DNA of 64,000 nucleotides from Candidatus Bathyarchaeota archaeon (GTDB lineage: Archaea > Thermoproteota > Bathyarchaeia > Bathyarchaeales > Bathycorpusculaceae): NCBI GenBank assembly GCA_963782525.1, contig CAWAKC010000007.1, forward strand, positions 348,165-412,164, written 5' to 3'. The notes below the pieces were generated by a model, which had not been told where the DNA came from, did not search any database, and worked only from the letters and a program-made list of their open reading frames with translations. Shown here one piece after another: positions 12,850 to 18,269 of this stretch. The translations under genes and the position numbers were made by a program. Within the stretch, counting starts at the first letter, position 1; the number at the start of each line of letters is the position of its first letter.

Positions 12850-13683
12850 ATGAAAGACAAGATTAGACTTGCACTTGCTCAAATCAGCAGTAAACGTGAA
12901 AACAAAAGCGAGAATCTGAGGAAGATAGAAGAGCTAACCATAAAAGCCAAAGAGCAAGGCGCAGACCTAATTATCTTTCCAGAGATGTCTTTAACAGGTT
13001 ACGTTATTTTAGATCAGGTTTACGAGCTTGCCGAGACGATACCTGGACCGTCAACCGATAAAGTTGAGACTTTGGCGAAGAAAACAGGAATGCACATCGT
13101 TTTTGGGATGCCGGAGTTGAGCGAAAAAACCCAAGCAACAATCTTTAATACCGCTGTCCTTGTTGGTCCCAAAGGCCTAATCGGTAAATACCGCAAGATG
13201 TACCTGCCAACTCACAGCGTCTTTGAAGAGAAAAGATATTTCCGCCCAGGGTATGAGCCAGCGGCATTCGAAACAGGTATAGGCAACATCGGATTATCCA
13301 TATGCTATGACGTTTTCTTTCCTGAAGTGTTTAGGCTATCACGCCTCAAGGGTGCGCAACTGATAATTTGCATTTCCGCGTCCCCAGCCGTGCGGAGAGG
13401 CTACTTTGAAATTTTAACGTGTGCTCGAGCACTTGAAAATACGGCGTTTATTGCATACGTTAACCTTGCTGGTGTTGAGGATGGATTGCAGTTTTGGGGT
13501 GGAAGCCGACTTGTTTGCCCAACGGGCGAGGTTGTTGCTAAGGCAAAGTACGATGAAGAAGATTTTGTCGTCTGCGACGTTAATTTTGGCGATTTGAGGG
13601 CTGCTGAAACGTTCATTCCGACCTTGAGAGATTTGCGGCCTGAACTTTTCGATAAATTGAAGGAGTTTTCAGAGCAAATCTGA
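12850..13683 (+). CDS. carbon-nitrogen hydrolase (nitrilase/amidase family)
   Basis: FPEM, YRK and ICYD triad (Glu-Lys-Cys); 14 bp after nadE. Confidence 0.92.
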   Translation: MKDKIRLALAQISSKRENKSENLRKIEELTIKAKEQGADLIIFPEMSLTGYVILDQVYELAETIPGPSTDKVETLAKKTGMHIVFGMPELSEKTQATIFNTAVLVGPKGLIGKYRKMYLPTHSVFEEKRYFRPGYEPAAFETGIGNIGLSICYDVFFPEVFRLSRLKGAQLIICISASPAVRRGYFEILTCARALENTAFIAYVNLAGVEDGLQFWGGSRLVCPTGEVVAKAKYDEEDFVVCDVNFGDLRAAETFIPTLRDLRPELFDKLKEFSEQI

Positions 13684-13825
13684 GATGTCACAGTTACATA
13701 AATTCCTTGGAGTGCAGCATCACAGGGGTATCACAAGGCTGTGATGTGAGGTAATTTGTGGTAAAATCACGTATTTCGGGTGATGTCACGGTGTTTTTTG
13801 TATGATGCCACGAATAAGTTGTGGC
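13681..13825. repeat. array A1 of TGTGAYGTCACA-like palindromic and half sites
   Basis: TGAGATGTCACA 13681, GCATCACAG 13717, GTATCACAA 13728, TGTGATGTG 13740, AATCACG 13765, GGTGATGTCACG 13779, TATGATGCCACG 13801. Confidence 0.8.
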
Positions 13826-14159
13826 CTGAAAACTATGTTTTAGTGTAAGATTGACCTAGAAAAAGTGTGGATATATCGTCGGAAATGCTAAAAATAAGGA
13901 GTTTAGGTTTGAGGGCGTTTGCAAAAGAGCATTTTTCGTGTAAAGTTCAGGCGCATTGGAGTAAAAAATTAACGAGAATTTAGGCTTTATTATGTCAACT
14001 GCACTTATTCTCGCACCAATTACTAAACAAGTCAAAATTGCGATCTAGATTAATAAATGGACGTTAATTCGAGCTTTTAATATTTCTGTAATGAGGGGTT
14101 AGGGCGGGTGCAAAGGTTAAAAACAAGGGTTAGTATACAAAACCGTATCCATTCAGACT

Positions 14160-14657
14160 ATGGAGGAACGCGGAGATTTGAAGTTAAAAGACGGCGTAAC
14201 AGCATGGTTAAGCGGGGCATTAAACGACCCCATTGTGCAAGTACTGGCTAAAAACAGCCAATTAACTAAAATACAGCTTGAAACATTGCTTATTGATGTT
14301 TTAGCTGAAAATATTTCCGATAAACAGCTAAACTACGATGAAAAATCTGCTTTACGGCTAACGAAGTCCAAAATAAGCCGCGGTTCGTTTAACAGGACGT
14401 TAAAACAGTCCAAAGAAAACGTCATAAAATCGATCTACACGGTACTACTTTTGGGTTATCTGGGTGTGTTTGAGAGCTCAACTCTTGACCCTTATCTCGA
14501 AATAGCCAATAAACTGCATGATTATGTAGAGGCTCACCAAGAAATGCCGGGCAAGGAAGAGGAACTAAAAGACCATCTAAAAGTGATAGAAATCATCCGA
14601 AATGAGCTCGAAACGAGCCTAAAACGGCTTTCTAGCCCATCACAAGACCAATTGTGA
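14160..14657 (+). CDS. uncharacterised origin-proximal HTH protein
   Basis: LTKIQLETL...LNYDEKSAL...ISRGSFNRTLKQSKENV resembles an HTH-10/sigma-r4-like recognition helix; helical C-terminus. Confidence 0.7.
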   Translation: MEERGDLKLKDGVTAWLSGALNDPIVQVLAKNSQLTKIQLETLLIDVLAENISDKQLNYDEKSALRLTKSKISRGSFNRTLKQSKENVIKSIYTVLLLGYLGVFESSTLDPYLEIANKLHDYVEAHQEMPGKEEELKDHLKVIEIIRNELETSLKRLSSPSQDQL

Positions 14658-14937
14658 CGTCACAAATCACAGATTTTTCAGTCATTTTTTTGCATTTTAG
14701 ATGAAGTAAATCATTTATCTGAATAGGCTTTAGTTAAGCATTAATTAACAAAATAAGCCTAATAATCGATTTTAAATGTATGGATACAGCTTCAAAATGA
14801 TGCACTGTGATGTGTGATGTCATACTTTACTAGGCATGATGTCACCGATAACCTTATTACTCCATGGAAATACTGTGATGTGTGATGCAACATTTGAAAA
14901 CACGGCGAATCACGGTTGAGTCACAAATAAATCACGA
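14638..14937. repeat. array A2 of TGTGAYGTCACA sites with a perfect palindrome, a 16-bp direct repeat and phased half sites
   Basis: TTGTGACGTCACAA 14652-14665; ACTGTGATGTGTGATG at 14804 and 14872; CATGATGTCACC 14835; CAC cores at 14901, 14911, 14922 and 14933. Confidence 0.85.
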
Positions 14938-14948
14938 GGGAAAACATC

Positions 14949-15731
14949 ATGATTGACCTCACACCAGTAATCGTAGGCATTTTAGTAACTATGACAGCAT
15001 TAGCTGGATACGAATACTATAAGCAAGTCCGCAAGGCATACAAAGAATACGAGAAAGCCAAAGATTTCATCGAAGATATCGTGCTCAGTTTTGATCGTGA
15101 GCTTAAACGTGAATCGGATAAGTTTGACACGATGGTTTCTAAAGTTGAAGGAAGCTACAACACAGCAAACGTGAGTTATAGAAAAGCAGATAACGTCGAA
15201 AGTAAAATAGAACCATTAGAGCAACAACTCGTTGCACTCAGCCAATCATACCAAGCGATGTCACAAACAATCTCACAGAATATAGGTGAAAACACTCAAA
15301 ATAGCACCAGCATCCTTACTGGGTTAACGGGGTTTGAAACAAAGATAAAAGATATTGAAGTCACACAGGAAACCTTGAGAAACAGAATATTAGCCTTTGA
15401 AGACCAAATTCAGAAGCTTTCTGTTTCTCCTCCTGTAGAAGCTAAAAACGAAATTGTTTTGCCTTCCATAGTAATCAAACGGGACAAAGCCATGTCCGCT
15501 CTTACTGACACCGAAATCGCAGTTCTTGAAATGTTGTCTAAAGAAGGGGCCAAGACGGCGCCTGAAATCAAAGAGAGGGTAAAGCTTAGTCGGGAGCATA
15601 CGGCAAGGTTGATGAAGAAACTCTATGAAGAAGGGTACCTTGAGCGGGAAGCAGGTAAAATTCCCTTTAGGTATAGCATTAAGAAGGAAATGGAAGCATT
15701 ACTGCAGAAATCTGAGAGCACAGCGGTTTAA
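14949..15731 (+). CDS. membrane-anchored coiled-coil protein with C-terminal winged-HTH
   Basis: N-terminal TM (LTPVIVGILVTMTALAGY), about 130 aa heptad-rich region, then LTDTEIAVLEML...TAPEIKERVKLSREHTARLMKKLYEEGYLER wHTH. Confidence 0.85.
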   Translation: MIDLTPVIVGILVTMTALAGYEYYKQVRKAYKEYEKAKDFIEDIVLSFDRELKRESDKFDTMVSKVEGSYNTANVSYRKADNVESKIEPLEQQLVALSQSYQAMSQTISQNIGENTQNSTSILTGLTGFETKIKDIEVTQETLRNRILAFEDQIQKLSVSPPVEAKNEIVLPSIVIKRDKAMSALTDTEIAVLEMLSKEGAKTAPEIKERVKLSREHTARLMKKLYEEGYLEREAGKIPFRYSIKKEMEALLQKSESTAV

Positions 15732-15749
15732 GGCAAAATTGTAACTTGA

Positions 15750-15782
15750 GTTCACAGGTTGTTCACAGTTGTGTTTTGTGAA
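15750..15782. repeat. TTCACA motif cluster B1 between convergent genes
   Basis: GTTCACAG at 15750 and 15761 (11 bp apart) plus inverted TTGTGAA at 15776. Confidence 0.7.
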
Positions 15783-15786
15783 GGGA

Positions 15787-16218
15787 TTACTTTATGCGTT
15801 GTTTGATTGTCGCTTGTGGTAGGCTTGGGGCTGTCTTATACTTTAAGCTGTTTGGTCCACCCGTCCTAAGCAGCATCCCTTTGGCTGCCATCCTTGAAAG
15901 ATAAGTTGAAACTGTACTGAGGCCCACAGGTTCTTTGAGTTCCTGTTCGTAGATAGACTGGATTTCTTTGGATGAGAACCAAATCAAGGGGAAATTTTTC
16001 TGGATAACCAACTGAACCTTCTCAAAACGTGACAAAATCTTATTCGGTAAAGCATTCCCTGCAATTGCAGTTGGACCTTCGCCTGATGCTCCACCTAGCA
16101 GCTCCACAAGATCCAAAAGGCGCAGAGCTTTATCTCGGGTCACTTGGCCCTCAAAAGCAATGGTATATCGATTACCATCGCTATCGAACAGCTCAACGCG
16201 CATTTTACGAGCCGGCAT
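15787..16218 (-). CDS. uncharacterised origin-proximal protein: small N-terminal beta/alpha domain plus winged-HTH
   Basis: N-terminal KMRVELFDSDGNRYTIAFEGQVTRDKALRLLDLVELL, linker, then FSSKEIQSIYEQELKEPVGLSTVSTYLSRMAAKGMLLRTG wHTH. Confidence 0.8.
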   Translation of the reverse strand: MPARKMRVELFDSDGNRYTIAFEGQVTRDKALRLLDLVELLGGASGEGPTAIAGNALPNKILSRFEKVQLVIQKNFPLIWFSSKEIQSIYEQELKEPVGLSTVSTYLSRMAAKGMLLRTGGPNSLKYKTAPSLPQATIKQRIK

Positions 16219-16234
16219 CTGGTTACACCTTAAG

Positions 16235-16539
16235 GTTGTTCACAACTTTATGCTTCACAACATATAGCTGTTATGGTGAAGCCGATGAATAGGAAAAAGA
16301 ATATTTGAGCTTATACATCTGTTTTGGATGTAATTTGAAGTGATTTGGCTATAACCAGCTTCACAAATAAACGAAACTGCTAAAAATATTCAGTTAAGGC
16401 TTAGTTCTGCTTTTCCAGTAGAAGCGTAGGGGTGCCTTGTTCACTTGTAAGAGACAAGAAAAGGGTAATTTACCAGCAAATAACCCAAATAAAGCGACAA
16501 ATAAATTGTTATTTCACATGTATTCACAGTTTTGTGAAC
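16235..16539. repeat. TTCACA motif cluster B2 extending into oriC
   Basis: GTTCACAA 16238, CTTCACAA 16253, CTTCACAA 16359, GTTCACTT 16439, TTTCACAT 16512, ATTCACAG 16522, inverted TTGTGAAC 16532. Confidence 0.7.
16413..16434 (+). promoter_or_regulatory. ORB1 (Orc1/Cdc6 binding site)
   Basis: TTCCAGTAGAAGCGTAGGGGTG matches the archaeal ORB pattern TCCAG-GAAA-G-string. Confidence 0.9.
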
Positions 16540-16669
16540 ATAAAAACAAAGAAAAATTAGCAAAAAAAATATAGGCAAACTTAGCGATATCTACAAACAA
16601 AAAATTACAGAAACAAAGTACTCACCGCCACCATCAAGGAAATTTACCATAGAAAATTAGTTGTAGCCA

Positions 16670-16691
16670 CACCCCTATGTTTCCGCTCGAA
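16670..16691 (-). promoter_or_regulatory. ORB2 (inverted)
   Basis: Reverse complement reads TTCGAGCGGAAACATAGGGGTG. Confidence 0.88.
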
Positions 16692-16854
16692 GTATTTGGG
16701 AGAAAAAGAAGTCAGAAAAGCCTGAACAAACTTTTGCAGAAGATTTGTCTAAAAACTTTGATGACAAATATTAATATATAAAAAAATAACTTACCTATTA
16801 CAGTATATTACTGTATATATAATAAATAGTAGTTTTCTTTTAACCAACATTATT

Positions 16855-16876
16855 CTCCAGTAGAAACTTTGGGGTG
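16855..16876 (+). promoter_or_regulatory. ORB3
   Basis: CTCCAGTAGAAACTTTGGGGTG. Confidence 0.92.
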
Positions 16877-16975
16877 TGTGTGCTCTCGCTTTGTTTGGTT
16901 GTTATCGGCTATTTTCTTTGTTTTTTAGGATTGTTGTGCTCTAAAACTATTTTTTTGTAGTGTATACTTTATCTG

Positions 16976-16996
16976 TTCCACACGAAATAACGGTGT
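16976..16996 (+). promoter_or_regulatory. mini-ORB in the cdc6 promoter region (possible autoregulation)
   Basis: TTCCACACGAAATAACGGTGT, ending about 30 bp before the cdc6 start. Confidence 0.6.
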
Positions 16997-17027
16997 TGCC
17001 TCTGAAGAATGATGAGAGGGATGCCTG

Positions 17028-18269
17028 ATGGGAAATTCAAGCGTATTAGATGATGTATTCGAAAACTTCGTGAACGGAGTTAAATTGTTCAAAGACCGAG
17101 AGGTCTTAAGGCACGATTATCTTCCGGAGAAACTTCCACACCGAGAAGACCAGATTCGCCTGTTAGGTGCAACCGTTGCCCCAGTTTTGAGGAATTCAAG
17201 ATGCTCAAACATTTTCATCTATGGAAAAACGGGGACTGGAAAAACGGCCGTAACTAAATACGTTTTAAGTCACTTGGAGTCTAAAGCAAAGGAATATGGT
17301 GCACAAGTAAAATTCTGCTACATCAACTGCCGAATGACTGGGTCTGAATACCGCGTTTTCGCAAGCCTTAGCCAAAGCGTGGGGTTATCAATACCCTTTA
17401 CAGGTCTATCTGCAGGAGAAGTTTTTGACCGTTTTCGTCAAGGATTAGATCAATCCAGAATAATATTTATCATCATTTTAGATGAAGTTGACGCCCTGAT
17501 CAAGGAACACGGCGACTCATTCATGTACGAGTTAACCAGGATAAACGAAACTTTAACCAAAAGCAAAGTTGCACTAATCGGCATATCCAACGACCTGCGG
17601 CTAAAAGAATTCCTCGACCCAAGAGTCTTCAGTTCTCTGAGCGAAGAAGAATTGGTCTTCAGACCTTATGATGCAGGTGAACTTCGAAATATATTGCTTG
17701 AACGGTCGAAGCTCTCCTTCCAAGATGGCGTTCTCACTGATTCAGCATTGAGCATTTGCTCGGCTTTAGCTGCAGCCGAACATGGAGACGCGCGGCGAGC
17801 TTTGGATTTGTTGCGCGTTGCTGGGGAAGTTGCTGAGCGGTTGGGAGCGAAAACGATCACAGAAGAACACGTGCGCCAAGCTGAAAAACACATCGAGCAT
17901 AACCGCGTTGTAGATGCCCTCAACAACTTAACGTTGCATTCCAAGCTCGTATTACTAAGCGTTTATCACTTAAACAAATCAAGCGCAACTACCGGAGAAA
18001 TCTATGATATCTACAATGAATTGTGCGGTGAAATGGGCGCTGGGCTTCTAACTCAACGTCGTTTAGGTACTTTGGTTAATGAGCTTGATTCAATGGGGCT
18101 TGTGAATGCAAAAGTAGTAAGCATGGGCCGATACGGCAGAACCAAAAAAATCCGTTTGGAGATTTCTCGCAGCTTAATTCGCGACGTCTTCAGCAGCGAT
18201 AACCGTTTTAGTCACTTACTTGAGTACTCGCCCCAAGTTTCCAACAAAAAGCCAAACAACAGTACATAG
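17028..18269 (+). CDS. cdc6: Orc1/Cdc6 replication initiator
   Basis: LPHRE, GKTGTGKT Walker A, ILDEVD Walker B, HGDARRALDLLR, C-terminal wHTH with GRYGRTK. Confidence 0.98.
   Translation: MGNSSVLDDVFENFVNGVKLFKDREVLRHDYLPEKLPHREDQIRLLGATVAPVLRNSRCSNIFIYGKTGTGKTAVTKYVLSHLESKAKEYGAQVKFCYINCRMTGSEYRVFASLSQSVGLSIPFTGLSAGEVFDRFRQGLDQSRIIFIIILDEVDALIKEHGDSFMYELTRINETLTKSKVALIGISNDLRLKEFLDPRVFSSLSEEELVFRPYDAGELRNILLERSKLSFQDGVLTDSALSICSALAAAEHGDARRALDLLRVAGEVAERLGAKTITEEHVRQAEKHIEHNRVVDALNNLTLHSKLVLLSVYHLNKSSATTGEIYDIYNELCGEMGAGLLTQRRLGTLVNELDSMGLVNAKVVSMGRYGRTKKIRLEISRSLIRDVFSSDNRFSHLLEYSPQVSNKKPNNST

Follow-up and report, generated by a model that had tools for sequence, protein, structure and literature searches.

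A protein of 260 amino acids encoded at positions 14949 to 15731 of a 64,000-nucleotide stretch of Candidatus Bathyarchaeota DNA (assembly GCA_963782525.1, contig CAWAKC010000007.1, positions 348,165 to 412,164 of the forward strand; this whole stretch is called the window, and all positions are counted from its first letter) is predicted to consist of an N-terminal membrane anchor, a long coiled-coil rod, a flexible linker and a C-terminal winged helix-turn-helix (wHTH) head. The architecture is real and deeply conserved, and the family is unstudied. It is an architecture able to bridge DNA and membrane, the gene stands beside a replication origin from the Bathyarchaeia to Nitrosopumilus, and it is accompanied by a conserved array of short sites that is unique in the genome. 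The protein is a good candidate, as yet unproven, for tying origin-proximal DNA to the membrane. A sequence-only reading of this DNA had proposed a dimeric rod that presents two wHTH heads to palindromic sites and holds the origin region at a set distance from the membrane; that interpretation is plausible and partly supported, and its key steps are unproven. The gene and the parts of its product are:

14949..15731, + strand: gene for the anchor, coiled-coil and wHTH protein (open reading frame list; 260 aa, ATG start, stop included)
14958..15014, + strand: predicted N-terminal transmembrane (TM) helix, residues 4-22, a signal-anchor of N-out/C-in type (hydropathy, flank charges, synonymous codons)
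15015..15419, + strand: coiled-coil rod, residues 23-157, ~135 residues, heptad-phased and continuous (AlphaFold2, periodicity, indels)
15420..15497, + strand: flexible Pro-containing linker, residues 158-183, ending in a conserved IPIKRDKA arm (pLDDT, indels)
15498..15719, + strand: predicted wHTH DNA-binding domain, residues 184-257 (Pfam, AlphaFold2, Foldseek, invariant columns)

The 260-aa protein had a 100% match in the protein database, and the gene was found as a single copy by whole-genome search of its own 2.87-Mb Bathyarchaeia genome. Kyte-Doolittle values of 19-mers within residues 1-22 were 1.5-2.0, with an uncharged hydrophobic span at residues 4-21. Among 41 aligned orthologs the uncharged N-terminal span was at least 17 residues long in 40 and 18 residues long in 35; in 40 of the 41 its N-terminal flank carried a net charge of -1 and the 12-residue C-terminal flank a net charge of +1 to +2. 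The hydrophobic helix and basic flank described earlier were thus borne out, as was the placement of rod and head in the cytoplasm by the positive-inside rule, an N-out/C-in topology being predicted from flank charge and composition. Since only three residues (M-I-D) precede the helix there is no outside domain, the point on which the sequence-only reading had rightly set the protein apart from ToxR/CadC. Third-position changes were found at the conserved G10, T16 and Ala codons of the anchor, and this synonymous variation indicates that the stretch is translated.

A span of only 18 uncharged residues would also suit a cleaved secretion signal, or a segment that is not inserted in the membrane at all, either of which would leave the protein soluble or exported. 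Sec signals have a positive n-region, a short h-region and a cleavage motif. Here the n-region is acidic (M/T-x-D, net -1) and positive charges follow the helix in 40/41 orthologs, the reverse of a Sec signal, and a Sec-type cleaved signal peptide was rejected on this charge distribution. The helix modeled by AlphaFold2 is unbroken from the segment into the rod, the segment is kept in Nitrosopumilus, where acidic residues again precede it and basic ones follow, and a wHTH that was exported would meet no DNA. A cleaved or non-inserted N-terminus is highly improbable.

AlphaFold2 (41-row alignment) modeled residues 5-157 as one unbroken helix with block pLDDT values of 80-95. Family-averaged hydrophobicity over residues 24-157 had a power of 12.7 at a period of 3.5 residues (shuffle mean 1.0; equaled in 0 of 2000 shuffles), and in 309 family sequences changes in rod length clustered at +7/+14/+21, -7 and -11/-18 residues. 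Increments of 7, 11, 14, 18 and 21 residues indicate that insertions and deletions hold the coiled-coil register, and the heptad-like rod stands as first described. It would be roughly 20 nm long if it formed a canonical coiled coil, and its oligomers would presumably be parallel; a homodimer prediction scored 0.15 against a mark of 0.42 and bears on neither side. PDB matches of the family profile were tropomyosin or chemoreceptor coiled coils only (E ~1e-5), and PDB sequence searches with family profiles returned generic coiled-coil proteins plus one MarR match (E 6.7e-4); no close relative with a solved structure was present among the PDB sequence-profile matches. In some orthologs (L013:6001-6846; P0079, P0092) tandem EYEKANN-type heptad repeats are inserted after the anchor, the inserts (e.g. 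+21 residues) being exact multiples of seven. The Pro-containing linker was likewise recovered: residues 158-183 had pLDDT values <50 in the same AlphaFold2 model, the 309 sequences have indels of any size here, and in the arm that ends the linker K180 is invariant and I176, R178, D179 and A181 are conserved at ≥90%.

The C-terminal wHTH was confirmed by matches above cut-off at residues 185-244 to Pfam MarR (PF01047; 30.8 bits, cut-off 24.6), TrmB (28.8 bits, cut-off 25.6) and HTH_27 (26.2 bits, cut-off 22.2), and by AlphaFold2 modeling of the isolated domain, which gave a helix-helix-helix-beta hairpin-helix fold with pLDDT 81-89. The recognition helix SREHTARLMKK (columns S214-K224) is invariant in the aligned orthologs, and R215, E216, H217, T218, R220, L221, K223, G229, R233, P239 and Y242 are invariant also when Nitrosopumilus and remote members are included. 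What is shared with MarR, TrmB and Lrs14-type regulators is the wHTH core, the Pfam match covering that core only (51/59 model positions); the Lrs14 and Sta1 NCBIfam models scored far below their cut-offs (NF040939, 28.3 bits against 90; NF053606, 26.1 against 80). Canonical MarR proteins are soluble dimers of ~140-160 aa in which N- and C-terminal helices form the dimer interface and ligand pocket. In the present protein the head stands behind a membrane anchor, a rod of 135 residues and a linker, and the wHTH makes up the last 75 residues with one short helix only after it; as the flanking dimerization helices are absent, it is not a canonical MarR.

Foldseek searches with the head gave AspA and MarR proteins as top matches, the latter at E ~1e-3. 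The best was AspA (PDB 5k5q, 4rs8; E 3.7e-4, TM 0.54-0.68, 20-24% identity), by a negligible margin over the MarR proteins, and AspA was not among the best 60 of 303 sequence-profile matches to PDB chains (E≤1). AspA is likewise an archaeal wHTH with a C-terminal helix; it is the centromere binder of the Sulfolobus plasmid pNOB8 and has a private site beside its own operon. It differs in being ~90 aa long, with no anchor and no rod, and in working with an adjacent ParB and ParA, a partition gene set not found beside the present gene: a search that covered the adjacent genes, and not the rest of the genome, gave no ParA/ParB Pfam match in the two flanking genes (orf165 and orf143, below).

Relatives at E≤1e-3 numbered 3271 in a word-indexed search. 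An exhaustive profile search of 1.84 billion representatives returned 953 (E≤1e-3), of which 352 reached E≤1e-10 and 117 reached E≤1e-30; nearly all are 200-270 aa long and match over their full length. Of 301 Bathyarchaeia genomes sampled, 220 carry the gene (122 among the 152 of high quality), mostly as a single copy. A sample of 301 genomes from the whole phylum contained it in 103, including 37 of the 45 genomes of one family with complete genomes of ~1.6 Mb whose source names are Nitrosopumilus. The Nitrosopumilus proteins, entered as 'winged helix DNA-binding protein', are ~200 aa long and have an N-terminal hydrophobic helix (score ~2.6), a shorter coiled coil, a low-complexity linker and a REHTxRLMKKL helix. 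Literature searches found no paper on the family, database names are all generic, and the ESM Atlas held only unnamed or MarR-labeled Bathyarchaeota and Nitrososphaerota clusters.

The origin and the genes that link the anchored gene to it are:

14160..14657, + strand: orf165, the upstream neighbor, with its own conserved promoter motif GTATACAAAACnGTATCCAT (no family match)
15787..16218, - strand: orf143, the convergent neighbor, with a weak C-terminal wHTH (Penicillinase_R E=0.008, below cut-off) and TTCACA repeats on both sides
16411..16878, no strand: oriC, with three ORB-like repeats (16413-16434; 16668-16691, inverted; 16854-16878) and an AT-rich stretch at ~16770-16840 (repeat search and sequence reading)
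17028..18269, + strand: orc1/cdc6 initiator gene (Pfam Cdc6_lid 1.4e-24, Cdc6_C 2.3e-24)

The spacer between orf143 and orc1 is 809 bp long and holds the three ORB-like repeats around the AT-rich stretch, which from general knowledge of archaeal origins we take to be origin recognition boxes (ORB) and a duplex unwinding element (DUE). After orc1/cdc6 comes the convergent gene for the DNA polymerase D small subunit (DP1). Orc1/Cdc6 was encoded 1.3-4.6 kb from the gene in 53 of 55 close loci (both misses were contigs of 3-5 kb), with orf165 present in 54 and orf143 in 53 of them. In 20 loci from other Bathyarchaeia families, at 27-39% identity, orf165 and DP1 were each present in 19, Orc1 in 14 and orf143 in 13. 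The order gene-orf143-orc1-DP1 recurred in 7/7 Nitrosopumilus loci, in one of which ORB-like repeats were again seen between orf143 and orc1, and in 3/3 loci of two further families; five loci of anchor-less relatives (described below) had orf143 in three and Orc1 in none within the fetched DNA. Homologs are not scattered away from origins, and the linkage presumed at the outset holds, with Orc1 nearby in 53/55, 14/20 and 7/7 loci. The link between gene and origin survives between classes and is not absolute. In eight close or more distant loci (L025, L026, L038, L047, L091 and L093-L095) ~2.5-3.5 kb of extra DNA lies between the gene and orf143.

Two arrays of RTCAC/GTGAY sites lie on the other side of the gene from the origin, both 1.5-3 kb from the ORB/DUE elements:

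14654..14671, no strand: GTGACGTCAC palindrome followed by AAATCAC, left edge of the array, at the orf165 stop codon (kept in 13/13 orthologous upstream regions examined)
14804..14819, no strand: box ACTGTGATGTGTGATG, copy 1 (exact 16-nt direct repeat; conserved in relatives)
14842..14867, + strand: conserved block TCACCGATAACCTTATTACTCCATGG with TATA-like CCTTAWWA, between the boxes (aligned upstream regions)
14872..14887, no strand: box ACTGTGATGTGTGATG, copy 2, ~15 bp downstream of the TATA-like element, in the expected transcription start region (direct repeat, conserved)
14909..14935, + strand: three RTCAC sites at 11-bp spacing in the presumed leader (ATCACGGTTGAGTCAC, GTCACAAATAAATCAC; 3-4 copies in relatives)
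14936-14940, + strand: Shine-Dalgarno (SD)-like GAGGG after the leader sites (SD-like at -14 to -10 in 40/42 loci)
13684..13815, no strand: second RTCAC/GTGAY array, including the GTGATGTCAC palindrome at 13780, after the nitrilase gene and upstream of orf165 (6 per 150 bp)

The layout upstream of the gene is fixed in relatives: GTGAcgTCAC-aaaTCAC at the orf165 stop, an AT-rich segment, GTGATGTGTGATG, CCTTAWWA, GTGATGTGTGATG, 3-4 RTCAC sites at ~11 bp, an SD-like sequence and the start. The GTGACGTCAC-AAATCAC element is conserved down to 40% protein identity, and the second array is conserved block by block in 18 relatives. By its position and sequence the TCACCGATAACCTTATTACTCCATGG block is presumably a promoter. 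Metatranscriptome contigs from relatives (four runs, 90-99% alike) include stretches of the gene as well as the 3' end of orf165 and orf143; starts, strand and level are not readable from them, one extends upstream of the presumed promoter, and they hold no evidence on the transcription start. The sequence-only reading had expected palindromic sites and had named 15740-15790 as a second region in which to look for binding. The candidate sites are not of that kind: most are arranged as direct repeats (GTGATGTGTGATG in two copies, RTCAC every ~11 bp), and a single 10-bp palindrome is present. The motif carried by 15740-15790 is a different one, TTCACA.

The 13-mer GTGATGTGTGATG occurs twice in the 2.87-Mb genome, both times at this locus. 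Nowhere in the genome are RTCAC/GTGAY sites denser than at the 5' flank of the gene (7 per 150 bp) and in the array 1 kb upstream (6 per 150 bp); the next best place holds 4. Three paired-site patterns were found genome-wide at the level of reversed-sequence controls (10 vs 10, 20 vs 20 and 31 vs 30), and in this 5-kb locus 3, 2 and 3 times against 0, 0 and 0 in the controls; as the patterns elsewhere are at control level, no wider regulon is seen. Similar site densities accompany distant members. Counted over the 306 bp that precede the predicted TM helix, ATCAC/GTGAT sites numbered at least 5 in 11 of the 20 distant Bathyarchaeia loci (expected 0.6-0.8), and GTGAT-dense upstream regions were seen in 7/7 Nitrosopumilus loci examined. 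In a re-scan of 16 further loci (5 of the 20 distant Bathyarchaeia and 11 from outside the class), 12 reached ≥7 RTCAC/GTGAY in some 300-bp part of the DNA fetched, against a mean of ~1; these include three anchor-less Methanomethylicia-type loci in which orf165 was not detected. Most of the loci without orf165 directly upstream (L096, L106, L115-L117 and L122) have their densest RTCAC array upstream of the gene, at a distance of 0.5-4.4 kb; their upstream neighbor is an HTH-CBS-domain gene, read directly in L122 only and guessed from translated upstream sequence in L096, L106 and L115-L117.

Our preferred reading, to which we give slightly less than an even chance, is that the protein attaches to these private arrays, acts as its own repressor and keeps DNA that lies 1.5-3 kb from oriC at the membrane. 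As a single-pass N-out/C-in protein it would have its 18-residue anchor running straight into the ~135-residue rod, and the linker would carry the head into the cytoplasm, where it would recognize the GTGAY/RTCAC motifs of the arrays at 14654-14935 and 13684-13815. Binding would repress transcription of the gene itself, a step proposed from the overlap of sites with the TATA-like element, the leader and the region where transcription is expected to start, and it would also attach the DNA near the origin to the cytoplasmic side of the membrane. This protein, not a neighbor, is the presumed array binder because the arrays and the invariant recognition helix travel together across three classes. 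A physical role is plausible, since a protein with sites only at its own locus has little else to regulate, and we infer that the role would be one of tethering, in origin positioning or segregation.

Several observations weigh against this. The arrays occupy positions ordinary for an archaeal repressor, at the TATA-like element, the start region and the leader, and ATCACR occurs 0 times in the origin spacer (16219-17027). With sites in the promoter and leader of the gene itself and in a stretch 1 kb further upstream, and none in the ORB/DUE origin, the DNA that could be held is origin-proximal and not the origin itself, contrary to what had been proposed from the sequence. Nor does a set distance fit, as rod length is not conserved: it varies by -18 to +21 residues within the Bathyarchaeia and is far shorter in Nitrosopumilus. 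Methanomethylicia/Verstraetearchaeota relatives keep the coiled coil and head and have no anchor (hydropathy 0.2-1.1), so the anchor is not essential to the core function of the family. In one large Bathyarchaeia family (f19) orc1 and orf143 were absent within 8 kb of the gene in 6/6 loci, and the sole Orc1 match (30-33% identity) lay elsewhere in 5/5 genomes, at 343 and 290 kb in the two that are single contigs. Finally, orf165 or orf143 could be the array binder instead.

Much of this would be expected of an ordinary local membrane-bound transcription factor that represses its own promoter, and perhaps orf165, through GTGAY operators, and we regard that explanation as nearly as likely. Its anchor would serve sequestration, proteolytic release or membrane sensing, and its place near oriC would be inherited gene order without function. 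Regulators of the MarR/TrmB/Lrs14 type typically autoregulate through operators at their own promoter; the head is a wHTH of MarR/TrmB type, and its candidate operators coincide with the TATA-like element, the leader and the point where transcription is expected to start, one of them falling on the start codon. Close-range synteny says little, since the whole block NadE-nitrilase-orf165-gene-orf143-orc1-DP1 is collinear in close relatives; family f19 keeps the gene without an adjacent orc1, and relatives without an anchor exist. Yet such a regulator would have a regulon of itself and perhaps one neighbor, there being no sites beyond chance elsewhere, three outside residues make it hard to picture as a sensor, and a 135-residue rod that preserves its register would go unexplained. 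The place of the gene next to orf143, oriC and orc1 is moreover kept between classes at 27-34% protein identity, deeper than ordinary collinearity.

The AT-rich segment at 14672-14803, between inversely oriented GTGAY sites (RTCAC to its left, GTGAT boxes to its right), suggests a further explanation: a replication-control or centromere-like cis element at which the protein loads or blocks machinery (origin sequestration, a second non-ORB origin or a partition site), anchoring being secondary. In an f19 locus (L097:7063-7821) the orf165-gene spacer is 760 bp long and has AT-rich runs between inverted GTGA-type repeats; GC content is lowest in the window at 14-18 kb (0.40), and the best fold match of the head is a centromere-binding protein. 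That match, however, is marginal and equal to the MarR matches, unwinding of the AT-rich stretch is an assumption, the adjacent genes gave no ParA/ParB-like or helicase-loader Pfam match, and a canonical ORB/DUE origin already lies 1.5 kb away. We consider a cis element of this kind unlikely.

The tethering proposal can be extended to an archaeal chromosome-anchoring system formed by the arrays and the family, in which a transmembrane 'centromere-binding' protein would fasten a cis element 1.5-3 kb from oriC to the membrane and so position or segregate new origins in Bathyarchaeia and the ammonia-oxidizing Nitrosopumilus. Insertion of the anchor during translation, while its own gene is being transcribed, would possibly help, and the anchor-less Methanomethylicia forms would use a partner. 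This extension is rather doubtful. To our knowledge, no segregation machinery has been described in Bathyarchaeia or Nitrosopumilus.

Membrane-bound wHTH DNA binders and DNA-membrane tethers are known kinds of protein, and what is new is the variant found in this family. ToxR/CadC-type regulators have an N-terminal cytoplasmic DNA-binding domain, one TM helix and a C-terminal extracytoplasmic sensor; these and the archaeal ArnR-type proteins are membrane-bound one-component regulators with an outside sensor or extra TM/HAMP modules. They resemble the present protein as single-pass or membrane-embedded DNA binders that act at the membrane. Both kinds differ in that their DNA-binding domain is N-terminal; here the anchor is N-terminal, the head is C-terminal and three residues are outside. 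Older examples of bacterial DNA-membrane tethers are RacA-DivIVA and Noc.

Among the systems compared, RicO of Staphylococcus aureus is by analogy the closest in logic. RicO carries a DNA-binding domain and a coiled coil together with an amphipathic helix that binds the membrane, and has nine origin-proximal ricS sites over ~700 kb around oriC (bioRxiv 10.64898/2026.03.06.710092). The two proteins share a DNA-binding domain, a coiled coil and a membrane element in one polypeptide, which is an analogy of architecture only. RicO has specific sites confined near the origin, and the candidate sites that the archaeal protein would bind lie near it as well. The two differ in order, RicO having its DNA-binding domain at the N-terminus and its membrane helix at the C-terminus and the archaeal protein the reverse; in the membrane element, a peripheral helix in RicO and a predicted transmembrane anchor here; and in the sites, which are spread in RicO and here form two arrays within 1.3 kb at the protein's own gene. 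RicO is bacterial and has no known homology to the archaeal protein. The UBP/ucm pair of Sulfolobales origins was also considered. UBP is a basic, beta-rich protein of 111 aa that binds as a monomer, has sites inside oriC and hundreds elsewhere, and contacts MCM (PMC12141716). It too is a DNA binder other than the initiator with a conserved motif tied to archaeal origin function; there is no common fold, anchor or site logic, and UBP/ucm was rejected as a relative.

Chromosome placement and separation in archaea outside the Sulfolobales are largely unknown, and the family is a concrete and testable candidate. If it is a tether, it would be an archaeal counterpart, built of unrelated parts, of bacterial origin-membrane anchors such as RicO. 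Since Nitrosopumilus spp. are cultured, the choice between a tether and an odd autoregulator could be decided.

The start codon of the gene is itself unusual in relatives. At the codon aligned with ATG 14949-14951, 36 of 42 orthologous loci have ACG, 3 ATG and 2 TTG, and 1 has an ATG two codons upstream (13 of 55 loci were omitted, their alignment falling short of the N-terminus). An SD-like GAGG/GGGG stands 10-14 nt upstream in 40/42 loci, and 31 of the 36 ACG loci have no canonical in-frame start upstream. The first canonical downstream start in several ACG loci is at codon 44 or later, which would cost the protein its anchor and the invariant E33/Y34 block. From these patterns initiation looks like a conserved near-cognate ACG start, possibly forced by the last RTCAC site, which in most relatives overlaps the start codon as ATCACG. 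Owing to ACG at the start position, database entries are truncated or wrongly extended: many public entries (among P0002-P0120) start at an internal Met and lose the anchor, and others are extended upstream into a spurious 'MCDATVK...' that is translated from the GTGATG DNA boxes. A literature search on ACG start codons in archaea returned nothing related; a conserved ACG start would add to the few documented archaeal examples of near-cognate initiation.

Other features of the locus concern the neighboring genes and spacers. No Pfam or NCBIfam match was found for orf165. Between the second array and the orf165 promoter, positions 13816-14124 form ~300 bp of non-coding DNA with conserved blocks (e.g. 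TGCAAAAGTGCATTTTT, TTATGTTAACT), no Rfam match and no conserved open reading frame; a Rfam scan of 13500-17100 at E≤1 gave no match, and no known RNA explains the long non-coding stretches. The orf165 promoter (14125-14159) carries the strongly conserved GTATACAAAACnGTATCCAT, and an inverted copy, ATGGATAC, lies at 14777-14792 upstream of the anchored gene, a pairing that suggests cross-regulation among the three small genes. TTCACA, often as GTTCACA, recurs at 15750-15775, 16233-16265 and 16512-16540, bordering orf143 on both sides and reaching the left portion of the spacer that holds the origin. With 6 copies in 300 bp, the cluster that begins at 16239 is denser in this motif than any other place in the genome, the runner-up having 4; the set probably represents the operators of orf143.

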